DNA from: a virus
Taxonomy: Duplodnaviria; Heunggongvirae; Uroviricota; Caudoviricetes
Length of the DNA stretch: 64,000 nucleotides
Reading direction: 5' to 3' (one strand)
Virus record (IMG/VR): IMGVR_UViG_2724679058_000003
The position numbers and the translations under genes were made by a program. This document shows, in pieces, positions 3,858 through 26,851 of the stretch; position 1 is the stretch's first letter, and each line of letters begins with the position of its first letter. The notes under the pieces are model-generated. The model did no database searches. It was given only the letters and a program-made list of their open reading frames with translations, and was not told the origin of the DNA.

Positions 3858-4213
3858 AGCACCACGTCCTGTGTGATAGTTATATCCCTGATACGAATGG
3901 ATATTTTCAACTTATCAAAAGCATCTCCCTCGGCTACTGACAAGCCAGAAATCGGTATGTCAGGTAAATCTACCGTCAGTTTTTGCAACAGCATTGCCTC
4001 AACCGCAATTTGAACATGCGACAAGTTGGTCGGTTCGTGTTTAAACTGCGGTAAAACATTGCCCCATGACGGATCTCCGTATACCTCACCCTGATAAGTG
4101 TTTAGCCACTCATATAAACGAGCGCCCCAGGCCTCCTCCTGGGACTCATACGTTTTTACGCCGGATAACTCCAGCGTCAGCAAAGGATCAATTTCGTTAT
4201 TGTTGGCCATCAA
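3854..4213 (-). CDS. Hypothetical virion morphogenesis protein
   Basis: 119-aa ORF overlapping neighbours by 4 nt. Confidence 0.55.
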   Translation of the reverse strand: MMANNNEIDPLLTLELSGVKTYESQEEAWGARLYEWLNTYQGEVYGDPSWGNVLPQFKHEPTNLSHVQIAVEAMLLQKLTVDLPDIPISGLSVAEGDAFDKLKISIRIRDITITQDVVL

Positions 4214-6252
4214 TCAACTCTCGCGTAGTCATTCATCAACGGATCATCAATTGACAGTGGTACCGTGCGCATAACGCCCGGCTGAGGCGTGCTGACCTTT
4301 ACGACAGTTCCCTGGCCTTTCGCCGAGTCTTTGGTGTGCTCTTCAATCCTGGCAAGCAATGAGGTCATCTGCGCAAACAGCCGCTTCGTTTCACCATCAA
4401 GTGAAACGGTATTATCAGCCAACTGCATTGTCGGCTTGGCACCGGAACCGCCAAGGTCACTAATAACCTGCCCGTCTATCTGCATACGACCGGTTGGTTG
4501 CTGCAAATCGTTGGCGGCAGTCGTCACCTGGGACGTGGAGGCTGGTTCAGGCGCATTATTTTTCCGCATCCCCGGCGAGTTGCGGAGTTTATCGAATAGT
4601 CCATCAATCCCCATTTGTGCGCCGAGATGGTCAAAGTAACTTGAGTTGTTGGCCACCGGACGCGCCTCTTCAACTGGCATCGGGGTATCAACATACACAT
4701 TGCCAGCTGCTGTTGCGGTCCCCTTCCCTCGTGCACGTTCTTCGAGCGTTCCCTGAACGACTTCCCGACGCATCCCCCGGCCATTCATGAATTTGTTGAC
4801 CAGATCGTTAACGCCAACAGCATTGCCGATTTTGTCTACCAGACCGCCTTTCTCAAACGGGCTATCACCAGGGGTAAACGCCAGGCCAGTAGACTGATCG
4901 ATAACAGCGTTATCAGGCAGTGGTCCCCTCACTCCATATTGCGCCCCACCCTGTGCTCCTGCTCCAGGTGTATAGATTTCACCACCTAAATAGCGAGCAC
5001 GATGAGTATTGACCTTGATCGCGTACTCACGGTTTTCTTTCGATAAGTCACCTGTGCCTTTTTTCCACTTATTAATAGTGCCAAACCCAGCATTATATGC
5101 AGTGATGGCCTCGTTTAAGTCTCCATTGGCTTGCTTCAGATACTTGCTCATGAGAAGAGCCGCAGCTTCTGCCGATTTCACAGGATCAAACGATTCACCT
5201 TCAGCTAAGCCAGTCTCTTCACGAGCAATCCCCGTGAACTGAAACATCCCCAGAGCACCGGTTTGGGATTTTGCATACGGATTACCACCAGATTCAGTTG
5301 CAGCAATCGCGTAAAGAGTGCCTTCTGGAAGACCGTATTTATTCTCTAGTTCAGCAAAATACGGAGCCAACTTATCGAGATTTGCCTTACCTTCAGCGCC
5401 AAGACTTCCGACTTTTACATCCAAGTTGCCATTGTTGTAGGTATCCGCAGCTTTCTGAATGTCATTCCTGGTACCAGTGGTATTAAGCGACGATGATGAC
5501 GAGCTATTTTGACCAATAGCTTTATCAATTTTCTGCAACGCGCTATTGCCCGTTTCTACGGCATTTGCATTGATAATCTGATTGGCAGTTTGTTTAACTG
5601 TTTTATTGCTATCTTTCGCTGTGTCCAGTGCCGCATTTATCACGCGGGTAGCAATATTACTCTGTTTGGCATCGGATTCAGTTTTAGAATCAGACGTCTC
5701 CTGGTGGCTATTAACCGGAGCTTTTAACTCTGGAGTGATTTCTTTCGCATTAGCCTCGCCGATCGGATTGGGTATTTTTGATACAATCATTGCCGCAGGG
5801 GTATTTTTAACGGCATCAACCGCTGCATCTAATGCTTTACCTGGTAAATTTTTAACCCCATCCCAAATATTACCAGCCGCCTCTTTAATGTGTTTCCCTG
5901 GGTTCTTAATGAAATCAATTGCACTATCAATTGCATCACTGAAAACCTGTTTCAGGTTATCGACAGTAAAGAAGTCTTTGATGGCATCCAGCTTTTCAAG
6001 CAGCTTATTAGATGTATCGCTAAACCATGCTGAAACAGCATCACCAATCTTTGCTGTGTAATCATCGAACTTGGTAGAAATGGTGTCGCCAAGGTTAGAA
6101 ATATATGTTTCTAAGTTGGTAATCCCACTATCAATGGTCTGGGCAATACTTTCCGTCGAAAATGATTGCAACATATTGCCGATATCCTCAAATCCAAGTG
6201 ATTTGAGAACCTCACCAATGGCGCTGCTAATACCAGATACCAGTCCCCCCAT
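4210..6252 (-). CDS. sit: Sit-like virion transglycosylase/tape-measure protein, C-terminal portion (SLT domain)
   Basis: 680-aa ORF with lytic transglycosylase motif LYAIAATESGGNPYAKSQTGALGMFQF; frame open upstream to 6313 and overlapping the 444-aa ORF. Confidence 0.75.
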   Translation of the reverse strand: MGGLVSGISSAIGEVLKSLGFEDIGNMLQSFSTESIAQTIDSGITNLETYISNLGDTISTKFDDYTAKIGDAVSAWFSDTSNKLLEKLDAIKDFFTVDNLKQVFSDAIDSAIDFIKNPGKHIKEAAGNIWDGVKNLPGKALDAAVDAVKNTPAAMIVSKIPNPIGEANAKEITPELKAPVNSHQETSDSKTESDAKQSNIATRVINAALDTAKDSNKTVKQTANQIINANAVETGNSALQKIDKAIGQNSSSSSSLNTTGTRNDIQKAADTYNNGNLDVKVGSLGAEGKANLDKLAPYFAELENKYGLPEGTLYAIAATESGGNPYAKSQTGALGMFQFTGIAREETGLAEGESFDPVKSAEAAALLMSKYLKQANGDLNEAITAYNAGFGTINKWKKGTGDLSKENREYAIKVNTHRARYLGGEIYTPGAGAQGGAQYGVRGPLPDNAVIDQSTGLAFTPGDSPFEKGGLVDKIGNAVGVNDLVNKFMNGRGMRREVVQGTLEERARGKGTATAAGNVYVDTPMPVEEARPVANNSSYFDHLGAQMGIDGLFDKLRNSPGMRKNNAPEPASTSQVTTAANDLQQPTGRMQIDGQVISDLGGSGAKPTMQLADNTVSLDGETKRLFAQMTSLLARIEEHTKDSAKGQGTVVKVSTPQPGVMRTVPLSIDDPLMNDYARVD

Positions 6253-6266
6253 ATCAAGAACATTAG

Positions 6267-7601
6267 CTAACGTATAAGCGGCTTTTGCTGGAATGATGGA
6301 TCTTGTCCTGATTTAAGCCCAAACGCTCGACGTTGCGCTTCTGTATCATTCCAACCGGTTACCGCATCATAAATACCTCCAGCCACTGTGCCGACTAGGG
6401 GAATTGCGCGTAACGCCCCTTTACCAACTGCCTTTAATCCAAGTTTACCTGCTGCCCGGGCAGCCAAATCTCCGCCTTCATGGGCGAGAGTCTTCTTGCC
6501 ACCACCGCGTAGCATTCCTACAAGTTTCTTTGCCCCCAGAGCGCCAAAAGCGAGTGCTCCAGCTTTTTTCAGCATGCCACGCCCCATTAACAACGACGCG
6601 ACGCCACCGGCCCCCTTCCCTAACAGGCTAAATAGTTTGGACAGCAAGCCGCCCTTCCTTTTCCCGGTGTTTTTGGCTATCTGATCAAGGGCGCTGAGAA
6701 TCTTGTCATTGCCCTCTTTAATTTCGCTGGTCTGCTCCTGAAGTTCCTGAACCGTCCGTTTTTGGGTGTTAACCTGAACGACATCGGCACTATTTTGCGA
6801 TTTACGCCTAAAAAAACCTTTTCTACGGCTGTTATCGTCATTGCCACGAATCACATCGGCAATAGACTTTCTGGCACCATTAAGCGATCCACCAACTTCT
6901 TTTGATATCCCGCCAAGCTCCTTCCCTGCTGCCCACAATGGACCAGCAACGGCATAACCTAACGCATCGACGGCACGAGTCTCTGAAGGGTTACCTATGC
7001 CTTCAGCTACTTTTGACAGTTTTTTTAATAAACCTGATTCAGCATTTAGACGCTCATCATCCTCTTTGCGCCTGGCCTTTTCAGCACGTTCAGCACGGGC
7101 ATCTTCCGCTGCGGCCTTACTCCCTGACTTTCCAATAAAACGACCACGCGCATCGCGTTGGTTTTGGCTTTTTTGCGCACCGCCTTTTTGACCGAACATT
7201 TCGCGAGCGTGTTCGGCTGCTTCGGTCCGTTGCGCCTTTACATCTTCTGTTATAGCCTTCTTGCGTCGTTTTTTACCCTTTCGCGTAGTTGATTTGGCCT
7301 GCGGTTCCTGTAGAGCAACATCCTCCTGAACTACACGAGAAACGTCCCCTAAATTAAGCCGTTTCATTGCCTCAACAATAGGGTCCACTGATGGCGCATT
7401 GGCCACAAAGTCTGGCCGGGAATTTTCGATTGTGCGATTTAATGCCGACACACTGCGAGAGACAGGATCAACAGTTGCAACGCGCCCCCCTTTCAAATCT
7501 TCAACAGCTTCCCGGATACCTGCAAGCTCTTCCAGCTCTTTTGCGCTGGCGGTTTCAACTGTCCTTATAACATCGTCAATGTTGGCGTTTTTTCTTTCCA
7601 T
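6267..7601 (-). CDS. sit: Sit-like protein, N-terminal portion (Gly/Lys/Ala-rich)
   Basis: 444-aa ORF ending 15 nt before the 680-aa ORF start, in the adjacent frame; a single-base change in the run at 6284..6287 would join them. Confidence 0.65.
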   Translation of the reverse strand: MERKNANIDDVIRTVETASAKELEELAGIREAVEDLKGGRVATVDPVSRSVSALNRTIENSRPDFVANAPSVDPIVEAMKRLNLGDVSRVVQEDVALQEPQAKSTTRKGKKRRKKAITEDVKAQRTEAAEHAREMFGQKGGAQKSQNQRDARGRFIGKSGSKAAAEDARAERAEKARRKEDDERLNAESGLLKKLSKVAEGIGNPSETRAVDALGYAVAGPLWAAGKELGGISKEVGGSLNGARKSIADVIRGNDDNSRRKGFFRRKSQNSADVVQVNTQKRTVQELQEQTSEIKEGNDKILSALDQIAKNTGKRKGGLLSKLFSLLGKGAGGVASLLMGRGMLKKAGALAFGALGAKKLVGMLRGGGKKTLAHEGGDLAARAAGKLGLKAVGKGALRAIPLVGTVAGGIYDAVTGWNDTEAQRRAFGLKSGQDPSFQQKPLIR

Positions 7602-13674: not shown

Positions 13675-14175
13675 ATGCTGGCTAAAGTCACTTTCCTGAG
13701 CTGTATAACGATGAGCGATTTTACTTTTTCTGGCTATGAATTGGCCTGCTTTGTAACACACTCCGGTCTATCCCGTAGCGCCGGGCATATCCTGTCGCAA
13801 TGTGCAAATCTCGCGGCAACAACCAGTGAATACTTCATTCACAAGCCTCACCGCCTGATCGCGGCAGAAACTGGTTATAGCCAATCAACCGTCGTTCGTG
13901 CATTCCGTGAAGCTGTAAACAAAGGAATTCTGTCTGTAGAGATTGTTATCGGCGATCACCGTGAACGTCGCGCTAACCTGTACCGGTTTACACCATCCTT
14001 TTTGGCCTTCGCACAACAAGCCAAAAATGCGCTGATTGAAAGCAAATTAAAGATCTCTTCAGCGGCAACCAAGGTTAAAGCTGTTCTCGCTAAGACATTG
14101 GCTTTATTTAATTTTTTATCCACACCCCATGTCAAAATGATACCCCCTCCCCCTGTCAGGATGACGTGGCAATAA
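13675..14175 (+). CDS. repL: RepL-like lytic replication protein, N-terminal portion
   Basis: 166-aa ORF directly after kilA; ends in a CCCCCTCCCCC tract. Confidence 0.55.
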   Translation: MLAKVTFLSCITMSDFTFSGYELACFVTHSGLSRSAGHILSQCANLAATTSEYFIHKPHRLIAAETGYSQSTVVRAFREAVNKGILSVEIVIGDHRERRANLYRFTPSFLAFAQQAKNALIESKLKISSAATKVKAVLAKTLALFNFLSTPHVKMIPPPPVRMTWQ

Positions 14176-14519
14176 AGAATAAGAAGTCACAAGTTAAAAA
14201 AACAAAAAGATCAGTTTCCGGCGGTGCCGGAACGACCAGACTCAAAAAATTGACTTCATGGATCGCTGAGGCAAAAGCAAAGGCTGACAATCTGCGGTTA
14301 TCCAAAAAACGCGCTCAAAAACATGAGTTCAAGCAGAAAGTAGAGGCGGCAGCGCGGAAATATGCTTACCTGAAGAACAAGTGTTCTCCTGATATTGGCG
14401 GGGTATCAAACTTCGATAATCTGCCGCATTGCATGACGGTAAACGAAGCTCTTAATGCGGTTTTAGCCAAAAATAAAGATAACGAACAATGGGGTATACC
14501 GGCAGGATTCAGAGGGTGA
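14166..14519 (+). CDS. repL: RepL-like protein, C-terminal portion (adjacent frame)
   Basis: 117-aa ORF overlapping the previous one by 10 nt; its frame is open upstream to 14112; combined length ~283 aa. Confidence 0.55.
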   Translation: MAIKNKKSQVKKTKRSVSGGAGTTRLKKLTSWIAEAKAKADNLRLSKKRAQKHEFKQKVEAAARKYAYLKNKCSPDIGGVSNFDNLPHCMTVNEALNAVLAKNKDNEQWGIPAGFRG

Positions 14520-23690: not shown

Positions 23691-24500
23691 TTATTTGCTA
23701 AGAGCAGCGAATAATCGTTCGAAATCGATAGTATCTATAGCACGCGTAAGCGCCGGAAGTTCAGCCTCAAAGTACCCGTGTCGATCGTAAAAGAAGGGAC
23801 CGAAGAGCGAGGCATGTTGGATTCTACTTCGCCCCAGCCCGGACACACAGTTAAGCCCATTACCGGTTAAAAGGCTAAAAAACTTCTCTGGATTATCGTG
23901 GTAAAGCTGGGAATCAATGGTGGCGGTTAACTCTTCCATAGGGAAGCACACCCGCCCTGTCTCCCAGGGATATTTAGTCCGAAGCATAAACATTGCTTTC
24001 AGCAATTCACATTGAGCGCGGATCGCGTCCGGGTCATAGCCAGATATGGAGACATAAGCCACGTCCCTCATTCCTGCGTCATCTTTGAAAGTCACGATAG
24101 AAGTAACATCCAGTTCTTTTTCGAAAGAGCGAGCAGCATCTACTGGACGCTGAAGTAAATCATTCGACTTAATGCGCTCGAGAATCCCTCCCCACATATC
24201 ATTTAGATATTCGATATGAGCCAAAACCTTATCAAGACACTCTCGTGTAAACCATTCAGTATGCCCGCCACCGGCGCTTTTCTCCCACGGCGCATTCCAG
24301 GGGAAAAAGGTTGCGTGTAAAGCCCGCTCAAGATTAACCATTGCCAAACGCGTACCACGATAGACCCGTGAAAGCGCAAAATCGGGACTCACTTGTAGCC
24401 CTTTAAACCGTGCCAATGGACCACATGAAATGCCGATTTTAAAAGTATCTCCGTTCTCCGGCACCAGAACGTAGAGGTAGTGTTGTTTCTCTTCTTGCAT
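23691..24500 (-). CDS. T5orf172 / GIY-YIG-like domain protein
   Basis: 269 aa; N-terminal YLYVLVPENGDTFKIGIS resembles the GIY-YIG/T5orf172 motif; lies between the downstream iteron array and parA. Confidence 0.6.
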   Translation of the reverse strand: MQEEKQHYLYVLVPENGDTFKIGISCGPLARFKGLQVSPDFALSRVYRGTRLAMVNLERALHATFFPWNAPWEKSAGGGHTEWFTRECLDKVLAHIEYLNDMWGGILERIKSNDLLQRPVDAARSFEKELDVTSIVTFKDDAGMRDVAYVSISGYDPDAIRAQCELLKAMFMLRTKYPWETGRVCFPMEELTATIDSQLYHDNPEKFFSLLTGNGLNCVSGLGRSRIQHASLFGPFFYDRHGYFEAELPALTRAIDTIDFERLFAALSK

Positions 24501-24519: not shown

Positions 24520-24795
24520 GAGAACCGCGCAAATGTTGACTATGCGCGAAGGTTAATGTGAATAGTTGACTATGCGCGATGTGACTACAGTCAAAAGTTG
24601 ACTGTAGTCGATTTAACTCCACCAAAGATCGACTATGTAAGATATTGTCGGGAGAAACGTTGACTATACGCGATGAAATGACCCTAAAAGCCATCTCAAT
24701 AGCGACTTGCAGAATATTGACGCCAGCAAAAATCCACCAGCGTCAACGAATGTCGTCTATAGTCAACTTCTCGCTATCGCATATAGTCAATATTA
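24520..24795. repeat. Downstream iteron array (incA-like copy-control locus)
   Basis: At least 7 copies of TTGACTATGCGCGA-like 14-16-mers in both orientations. Confidence 0.8.
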
Positions 24796-25554
24796 TGGAT
24801 TGCGCTTATGGATCTGGAAGCCGATTTTCCTGCCGTTTTTTATCTCTGAAAATTTAAGATATTCAATAGCTTCCAAATCTTTCATGGCTTTTCTGATAAC
24901 GCTATTTTGCACGCTAACGGATGATTTGAGATTAAGCCTTGCTCTAAGGCGCTCAATGCTGACAGGTGCCGGGTTGGCGGGTAGAGCCTCAAAGAATGTA
25001 TACAGTACCTTGGCCGTCTCTTTGCGCCCGAGCTTATCCAGCATCTTCAGCTTCAGGATTCGCTTATAGTCAACATAGTAAAGTTCAGATAGCTGTTTCT
25101 GCGGCTGGATCTCGATAACATCAAGCTCGGTATTCAGGCTGCTATATGCCAACAAGTTGACGTTAATGTTATTGAGATGACCTTTTGCCGCCGGGAAGCG
25201 GAATTTGACAACTGTCTGCTGAATGCGTGTCAGAGAGTCATCAATACTTTTACGGAACGCCTTTGAAAGGCGCTTACGTGGATAGCCGCATCGATCGGCA
25301 AACTCGGAGAATGGCAGGGTGATTATACCGTCATCATCAGGTGCGTAGTCAAACAACGCGGAGGTTATGCCCACCCACACCTTAAAATCAGTATCCATAT
25401 CCAGGCGTGGACCATGAATTTCAATTCCCTCATAGCCTTCCTGCTCAACAATTTTGAGGCTTGATAGTTCTTCGGTTGCGTTCGTTGTGTTTGTTGTAAC
25501 TGACGATCCGCGACGTAGCGCCACATTGGTAGATTTTAAGGTTGGCACAAACAC
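24793..25554 (-). CDS. repA: Replication initiator RepA (iteron-binding), annotated from an internal GTG
   Basis: 253-aa ORF flanked by iteron arrays; N-terminal similarity to recalled P1 RepA continues into the upstream overlapping frame. Confidence 0.75.
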   Translation of the reverse strand: MFVPTLKSTNVALRRGSSVTTNTTNATEELSSLKIVEQEGYEGIEIHGPRLDMDTDFKVWVGITSALFDYAPDDDGIITLPFSEFADRCGYPRKRLSKAFRKSIDDSLTRIQQTVVKFRFPAAKGHLNNINVNLLAYSSLNTELDVIEIQPQKQLSELYYVDYKRILKLKMLDKLGRKETAKVLYTFFEALPANPAPVSIERLRARLNLKSSVSVQNSVIRKAMKDLEAIEYLKFSEIKNGRKIGFQIHKRNP

Positions 25555-25556
25555 AC

Positions 25557-25676
25557 CTAACGCAACAAAGCAATGGGTTGTATAGTGCTGTTGTTATTGG
25601 GCTTCAGGCTGTGGATTTCTCCTGTATTTCCTGCAACTTCTTCAACGCTAAGGAAGCCTTTACTTTCTTCCGGCAT
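25557..25676 (-). CDS. Upstream 39-codon ORF: displaced RepA N-terminus or coupled leader peptide
   Basis: ATG at 25676, stop TAG at 25559..25557 two nt before the repA GTG. Confidence 0.4.
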   Translation of the reverse strand: MPEESKGFLSVEEVAGNTGEIHSLKPNNNSTIQPIALLR

Positions 25677-25755
25677 CGTAGTTTCTCCATGTGTGGCGCG
25701 GCCTGACGTCAATTTGGATGGCTGTTATCAACAGCTGTGAATATTCAGGCTCTAA

Positions 25756-25858
25756 AATCGCGTACAGTCAATGTTTCTGTCGCGTATAGTCAACATAAAA
25801 TCGCGTGTAGTCAACAATAAATCGTGTACAGTCAACATAAAATCGCATATAGTCAATG
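25756..25858. repeat. Origin iterons (incC-like), five direct repeats at ~21-bp spacing
   Basis: TCGCGTACAGTCAATG, TCGCGTATAGTCAACA, TCGCGTGTAGTCAACA, TCGTGTACAGTCAACA, TCGCATATAGTCAATG. Confidence 0.85.
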
Positions 25859-25859
25859 T

Positions 25860-25970
25860 TGATCACGTTTCAGGCCAGACATGGCGCGGCCTACAGCGAT
25901 CCGGGATCTTATTTGGATCTTCTTAGGTTCTCTTTTGGATCTGTTTATTGGATCTATGCTGTGGATAAGT
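25860..25970. promoter_or_regulatory. Plasmid origin accessory region: six GATC sites and a DnaA box
   Basis: GATC at 25861, 25898, 25905, 25916, 25937, 25951; TGTGGATAA (complement of TTATCCACA) at 25960..25968. Confidence 0.65.
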
Positions 25971-26019: not shown

Positions 26020-26421
26020 TTAGTTGTCGTTTTCCGTACCTACTTCTTCGATCAACAAACTACTTGTATAGATACGTAACGTATCACCTTTGTAGAGGAA
26101 TTGATAACCAACACCTCCCATGGCAGGGAGGTCGGGGAACATTTCAGAAGCAACCCCAGAGCAAATCACGGCGATACAATCATCCCGCTGTACATCCTTA
26201 CGCTCTGTACTCAAAGTTTGCTCTTCCCCGATTGCCTTTGTCATCTCCTCATCTTCGTACGCAACAGGGATATATTCAATCGCATCAGGCGTTTTGATAC
26301 CCAGTTCTTCAGCAATCTCGAACGCCTGTTTAAATTGATCTGAACCAGGATATCCAACGGTAATACTCTCAATTTCGAACAGAGAAGTAGCGTTATTTAT
26401 TTCTTGTTTAACCGCAAACAT
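26020..26421 (-). CDS. Hypothetical protein
   Basis: 133-aa ORF. Confidence 0.55.
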   Translation of the reverse strand: MFAVKQEINNATSLFEIESITVGYPGSDQFKQAFEIAEELGIKTPDAIEYIPVAYEDEEMTKAIGEEQTLSTERKDVQRDDCIAVICSGVASEMFPDLPAMGGVGYQFLYKGDTLRIYTSSLLIEEVGTENDN

Positions 26422-26491: not shown

Positions 26492-26851
26492 TTAAATCTG
26501 CTCGCTGAGCTTTTGCTTCAGCAGATAACCTTCCAGCGGCCAGATTTTCTCAATGGCTTTCTTACGGGCCACCTTACGGCCAATCTCCGCGTCGAAATTT
26601 TCAGGGCTGGCACAGGCGCTTTCCCCGGTAACAATGAATCCATTGCACAGCACCAAGACACAGATGGTCAGGCTACGCGTAGAGGGATGAACAGACAGCA
26701 CCTCACGAACGCCTTCATGCGCAGCGCGAATGCCGTCAAAAGCTGTGAAATAATGCTCTTCGGCAATCACACTCTCGATGTGATCAGGAGTCAGGCGTGG
26801 TGCTGTTTTGCCTTTGGCCAGAATCTCTTTTTCAATTTCCATATCGGACAT
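26492..26851 (-). CDS. Hypothetical protein
   Basis: 119-aa ORF. Confidence 0.55.
   Translation of the reverse strand: MSDMEIEKEILAKGKTAPRLTPDHIESVIAEEHYFTAFDGIRAAHEGVREVLSVHPSTRSLTICVLVLCNGFIVTGESACASPENFDAEIGRKVARKKAIEKIWPLEGYLLKQKLSEQI

Follow-up and report, generated by a model that had tools for sequence, protein, structure and literature searches.

The locus studied here raises the question of whether a short open reading frame (ORF) in front of a plasmid replication gene is a leader peptide coupled to it by stop and restart of translation, or the displaced N-terminus of the initiator protein itself. In the 64,000-nucleotide stretch of viral DNA that was analysed as a whole (the window), the initial annotation had described an ATG-initiated ORF of 39 codons whose stop is separated by 2 nt from the GTG opening a RepA frame of 253 codons, and which starts just downstream of the origin iterons. 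Both frames are present on the minus strand, and the ATG lies approximately 80 nt from the iteron array at 25757-25860. As written in the record, the locus contains the following features.

25676-25557, minus: upstream repA ORF, ATG start at 25676-25674, 39 codons (MPEESKGFLSVEEVAGNTGEIHSLKPNNNSTIQPIALLR); RepA codons 1-39 plus a premature TAG
25559-25557, minus: premature stop TAG, followed by the two bases GT at 25556-25555
25554-24793, minus: downstream repA ORF, 253 codons, GTG at 25554-25552; RepA codons 42-294 plus the stop
25688-25685, minus: Shine-Dalgarno sequence GGAG, 8 nt 5' of the authentic ATG; the relatives annotate the same start
24793-25676, minus: whole repA gene for the p0111-type RepA of P1-like phage-plasmids, 884 nt here vs 885 nt in relatives
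25559-25560, minus: frameshift site (gap placed at 25560/25561 by blastn against three relatives), TT here and TTT (CGT TTA GGT) in the closest relatives

Relation of the two frames to RepA

In related elements, repA is a single uninterrupted CDS of 885 nt encoding a protein of 294 aa (WP_001113742.1), which consists of the upstream ORF, a leucine, a glycine and the downstream ORF in this order. The two ORFs of the window are 100% identical to residues 1-39 and 42-294 of this protein, and residues 40-41 are regained by restoring one T. The one-T insertion by which the initial annotation had fused the two ORFs, reading the first as a frame-shifted N-terminus, thus reproduces WP_001113742.1 exactly, and the translation of the intact gene runs through ...QPIALLRLGVFVPTLKS... 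within one ORF of 294 aa. An uninterrupted ORF of 294 codons is not present in the window, where a 1-nt deletion leads to a TAG after codon 39; tblastn of RepA against the window returns two adjoining HSPs in frames -3 and -2. In the alignment, the window has CGTTAGG where the relatives have CGTTTAGG or CGCTTAGG (more widely, TTGCGTTAGGTGTG against TTGCG(T/C)TTAGGTGTG, one base fewer), and the missing base places the downstream codons in the -1 frame. The 1.3-kb region matches 12 phage and 456 plasmid records with 97-99% identity, among them the phages RCS47, SJ46, JL22 and phi456, while the plasmids are mostly Escherichia P1-like phage-plasmids. The juxtaposition of the ORFs is not a matter of chance, since each matches one of two successive parts of a single known protein with 100% identity; judged by this identity, the 39-codon and the 253-codon ORF are one 294-codon repA gene of a p0111-type P1-like phage-plasmid.

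The position of the break within the protein points in the same direction. It lies centrally in the N-terminal block of highest conservation, NNT(I/V)QP(I/V)AL(L/M)R/LG(V/L)FVP (the slash marks the break), which is common to the RepA proteins of P1 and SSU5. P1/P7 RepA aligns with the window-type RepA at 42% identity from residue 24 to the end, and SSU5 RepA at 45% identity from residue 13, both across the break. The resemblance of the fused sequence to the N-terminal stretch of P1 RepA, which the initial annotation had pointed out, was borne out by the P1/P7 alignment. Since the P1/P7 and SSU5 proteins align across the break and within this conserved block, the 39-codon ORF is, on the evidence of these alignments, the N-terminus of RepA, and the supposed GTG start is its Val42. 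The motif at the break corresponds to P1 RepA 36-RLGVFVPKPSKSKG-49, a segment described in PMC5395669 (citing Kim et al. 2002) as containing residues important for DnaK recognition. Both Pfam matches, namely Rep3_N (WH1, 22.0-22.7 bits with a cut-off of 22.4) and Rep3_C (WH2, 27.3-27.7 bits with a cut-off of 21.1), are located downstream of the break and correspond to residues 113-285 of the intact RepA.

Replicon type and origin architecture

P1-like phage-plasmids have two replicon types, IncY and p0111 (PMC9603915). The replicon of the window is of the p0111 type, and the synteny expected of a P1-like element is found as well (parA/parB, gene 23, ban, dam, repL and others). The p0111-type RepA proteins of RCS47, SJ46, JL22, phi456 and pEA22_2 are identical to the translations of the window across both ORFs, and the DNA of these relatives is 97-99% identical over repA and the origin. 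They also share the same neighbours, that is upstream iterons, a DnaA box, a GATC cluster, downstream iterons, a GIY-YIG gene, parA and parB. The window differs from them in that one base is lacking in codon 40, by which the ORF is split as written. Around repA, the elements of the putative origin and of copy-number control are arranged as follows.

25757-25860: incC-like origin iterons, five of 19 bp with a spacing of 21-22 bp; the layout matches the annotated P1 oriR/incC
25898, 25905, 25916, 25938 and 25951: five GATC sites, matching the five Dam sites annotated in P1 oriR
25960-25968: perfect DnaA box TGTGGATAA, corresponding to the DnaA box annotated in P1 oriR
24531-24794: downstream iteron array with repeats in both orientations, an incA-like copy-number control locus; P1 incA is annotated in the same position

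Direct repeats adjoining the rep gene and a DnaA box, as expected for an iteron plasmid, are thus both present. A promoter and terminator consensus scan of the locus did no better than on shuffled sequence and had no hit on the repA strand. By analogy with P1, full-length RepA would be made from the ATG at 25676 and would repress its own promoter within the iterons. DnaK/DnaJ/GrpE would turn RepA into monomers through the RLGVFVP site, the monomers would bind the five origin iterons, which adjoin the DnaA box and the Dam sites, and the copy number would be limited by the downstream array, whose iterons would titrate or handcuff RepA. All of these functional steps, including the presumed binding of RepA to the iterons and the initiation of replication, are carried over from P1.

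The P1/P7 replicon (IncY; RepA of 286 aa, oriR/incC, incA) shows its elements in the order found in the window (DnaA box, five Dam sites, five 19-bp iterons, repA, iteron array), and the RepA proteins of P1 and of the window both carry the block NNT(V/I)QP(V/I)AL(M/L)RLGVFVP with the DnaK site of P1 inside. P1 is nevertheless a different replicon type with a RepA identity of only 42%, and its par promoter directly follows incA, whereas in the window a GIY-YIG/T5orf172 gene lies between the downstream iterons and parA. This gene of the GIY-YIG/T5orf172 nuclease family (269 aa, 23691-24500, minus strand) is present in all p0111-type relatives examined. On the other side of the origin, at the position of upfA in P1, the segment 25986-26858 is replaced relative to most relatives and matches pEA50_2, in which its counterparts encode a 133-aa hypothetical protein and a Gp49-family protein; the ORFs of the window in this segment are 26020-26421 and 26492-26851, both on the minus strand. 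P1-like elements are known to vary in this region, among others.

Among more distant systems, the initiators of the Rep_3 or RepE class (F RepE, pPS10 RepA, SSU5 RepA) combine Rep3_N and Rep3_C with an iteron-built origin as in the window. The window RepA differs from this class by an N-terminal extension of approximately 75 residues before the WH1 match, and its homology to the wider Rep_3 family is weak, with Pfam scores near the threshold. Coupled rep leaders such as repA/tap in IncFII and repY-repZ in IncI resemble the locus superficially, namely in a short ORF that ends beside the rep start. In IncFII and IncI plasmids, the leader is a conserved peptide without sequence relation to Rep, and antisense RNA controls it. 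Unlike these, the apparent leader in the window is the N-terminus of Rep itself, and its two-ORF state is found in no relative.

Occurrence of the split among related replicons

Using a 70-nt probe centred on the site, the deletion was found in 0 of 395 PLSDB plasmids and 0 of 406 complete E. coli genomes; the extra base was present in every match, and no match in either set reached 99% identity. An exact 36-mer across the deletion had no match in the genome, viral or metagenome contig collections, indicating that the deletion allele does not circulate in these three data sets. In the protein collection, the form of 294 aa is the dominant RepA, with one member on 483 contigs, and the shorter entries are labelled as partial and have many lengths (87-261 aa). 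Homologues starting at the GTG without any similarity to the upstream peptide, which would have spoken for a separate leader, were not seen: full-length homologues do not start there, range from 286 to 340 aa and carry the N-terminal motif. A conserved arrangement of two ORFs, as expected for translational coupling, likewise occurs in none of the 395 plasmids and none of the 406 E. coli genomes. The relatives, all of which encode RepA in a single frame, thus rule out a conserved coupled leader as well as a conserved programmed frameshift. Among the two alternatives offered by the initial annotation, the shifted N-terminus is hence upheld, whereas the stop-restart leader as a designed arrangement fails, given that its two-ORF state is absent from approximately 800 related replicons; an error in the sequence was not among its options.

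The exact product of 253 aa is recorded once, on a Logan contig (SRR35014599_1277, 1-170), in which the end of a multi-copy mobile element interrupts a repA of the same type exactly at this GTG; the origin and the first 41 codons of repA are gone. We considered this match as a second instance of the 1-nt deletion and rejected it, because the end of the mobile element directly abuts GTGTGTTTGTGCC. The break in this contig is a genuine and independent disruption of repA. More than 5000 plasmids contain the mobile element, a single record having as many as 17 copies, and its terminal repeat GGCTTTGTTGAATAAAT looks IS903-like.

An exact look-up of the 39-aa ORF returned eight contigs, all of which end in ...TTGCGCT(T) and represent partial genes at contig ends. 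These eight unrelated Logan/ENA contigs stop at most 3 nt from the frameshift site (...TTGTTGCGCT/T). A natural hot-spot of variation at this site was considered and set aside as the less likely reading, since partial RepA entries exist in many lengths (87-261 aa) and the look-up selects a single one; the coincidence of the eight contig ends is therefore probably a selection effect of the exact-length search. A local branch point of the assembly graph at the frameshift site is a less likely explanation for these contig ends.

Origin of the missing base

To judge whether the missing T is a property of the element or of its sequence, the whole window was compared with pMTY10828_p0111, pEA22_2 and pLR-21-1_3, three complete relatives that are approximately 97.5% identical over 53-55 kb. 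Single-base indels were counted as private to the window where all three relatives agree with each other. By this definition the window carries 16-17 private single-base indels including that in repA, of which 13-14 are deletions and 3 are insertions, corresponding to about one per 3.4 kb.

Private deletions: 2097, 6287, 7660, 12125, 14129, 16718, 19323, 21183, 25560 (repA), 30088, 40058, 43409, 46077 and 60039
Private insertions: 37651, 38172 and 41116

About nine of these indels lie in runs of at least three identical bases, vs 17% of the window bases that belong to such runs, and coding and non-coding DNA are struck alike. When the 70 annotated proteins of pLR-21-1_3 were compared with the window by tblastn, 12-13 were found to be split into two frames at sites of private indels. 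The genes affected are those for the tail tube, Sit (680 + 444 aa), the Ant antirepressor, RepL, a 72-aa hypothetical protein, RepA, Dam, the baseplate hub, a further baseplate protein, a 405-aa tail protein and a DUF968/HNH protein, and a VRR-NUC gene and a gene of 233 aa are split at their C-terminal ends. The gene of the lytic-replication initiator, repL (13675-14516, plus strand), is frameshifted by the shortening of a run of five C to four at 14129, while the intact RepL homologue is 98% identical to P1 RepL. With repL and repA both frameshifted, neither replication initiator of the element is intact as written.

The C-terminal two-thirds of Sit (4213-6285, minus strand) are only about 77% identical to pLR-21-1_3, and in comparison with pMTY10828_p0111 compensating indels are seen at approximately 4570-4946. 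The tape-measure/transglycosylase gene is mosaic or hypervariable in this segment, which is separate from the private frameshift at 6287.

Apart from the indels, the window is unremarkable. It has 344 singleton substitutions, the fewest of the four genomes (407-661 in the others), no stop codon independent of the frameshifts in approximately 15,400 aligned codons, and unbroken genes that are 95-100% identical to those of the relatives at the protein level; on these three grounds, it bears no signs of decay other than the indels. The private single-base indels of the relatives themselves fall between genes or into hypervariable segments, and the number of genes marked as frameshifted by PGAP in these plasmids is 0-2 per 100 kb. 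Two other private indels of the window were probed and were absent from 402 and 478 related plasmids, respectively.

This pattern suggests that the missing T in repA stems from faulty sequencing or assembly and is a residual single-base indel of an error-prone assembly, a reading to which we assign a probability of roughly 85%. The restriction to indels, the bias towards deletions, the enrichment in base runs and the rate of about one per 3.4 kb are what residual errors of an incompletely polished assembly would look like; a rate of this size would be in keeping with assembly from long reads only. If, on the other hand, RepA, RepL and at least five tail and baseplate genes had really been lost, the element could neither persist as a plasmid nor propagate as a phage, and other marks of decay would be expected, none of which is seen. 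Three points speak against an error. The run at the repA site comprises only three bases, unlike a classic long homopolymer; short runs also acquire single-base indels in mismatch-repair-deficient hosts; and P1-like elements with a disrupted repA occur in nature, as exemplified by the Logan junction at the same GTG. All in all, we regard a genuine private mutation as unlikely, but as an explanation that deserves to be weighed.

Were the deletion real, it could in the first place be a null or crippling allele of repA in a defective P1-like element that makes no full-length RepA, whether the element is decaying, is a copy residing in the chromosome or on another replicon, or has passed through a mismatch-repair-deficient host. 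The deletion is, after all, present in the sequence as given, other natural disruptions of repA and chromosomal P1-like copies exist (P1-like sequence was found at eight chromosomal places in E. coli genomes), and the many other frameshifts of the window would agree with a loss of selection on the element. However, 12-13 frameshifts are seen here without the nonsense substitutions, excess of missense changes, deletions or IS insertions to be expected in such an element, and the indels show a bias towards deletions and an enrichment in base runs, as sequencing errors do. Moreover, repA, repL and at least five tail and baseplate genes would be dead, yet the partition and addiction genes and all others are 95-100% identical to those of working relatives, and none of the three indels probed occurs in any other of approximately 800 records. 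We therefore consider a null allele improbable.

Considerably less credible is a real deletion that is tolerated by the replicon. Ribosomes would in this case terminate at the TAG and reinitiate at a GTG 2 nt (Val42) or 8 nt (Val44) further on, so that an N-terminally truncated RepA of 251-253 aa would drive the origin, accompanied by a free peptide of 39 aa. The geometry TAG-GT-GTG-TTT-GTG fits bacterial termination-reinitiation, a Shine-Dalgarno-like AGGTG overlaps the stop 5 nt before the second GTG, and WH1 and WH2 are both encoded downstream of the break, so that the truncated protein could still fold and bind iterons. Yet AGGTG and the GTG codons are ordinary coding sequence for Leu-Gly-Val-Phe-Val in the intact gene, and the arrangement is kept in no relative. 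The truncation would furthermore delete the N-terminal motif with the strongest conservation and cut the homologue of the DnaK site in two, and the dozen other broken genes of the window lack any such rescue.

Programmed recoding, in which a -1 ribosomal frameshift or transcriptional slippage at CGT-TAG would yield a regulated full-length RepA, is effectively refuted: a -1 shift at this site would formally rejoin the frames, but the junction TTGCGTTAGGTG (context TTG-CGT-TAG-GTG) contains no slippery heptamer of the type X XXY YYZ and no run of A or T long enough for slippage of the transcript, every relative encodes RepA in one frame, and the shift is private to the window whereas programmed frameshifts are conserved features.

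An artefact of sequencing or assembly thus remains the preferred explanation, and the consequences for annotation are straightforward. A single repA gene should be called here, marked as frameshifted or with its frame corrected, in place of a RepA of 253 aa with a leader peptide. The whole record should be treated as indel-prone, as about a dozen other genes are broken in like manner. Gene and replicon were both known before, and the split is most probably not a biological feature; on the control of P1-type replication, nothing new is learned from the locus. A real deletion would represent a natural N-terminal truncation that cuts through the DnaK-site homologue of a P1-class initiator, which would be of modest specialist interest in the field of iteron plasmids. 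A plasmid maintained by a RepA lacking its first 41-43 residues, and with them half of the DnaK-site homologue, is a prospect to which we give very little credence; it would possess a chaperone-independent or deregulated initiator together with a free peptide of 39 residues.
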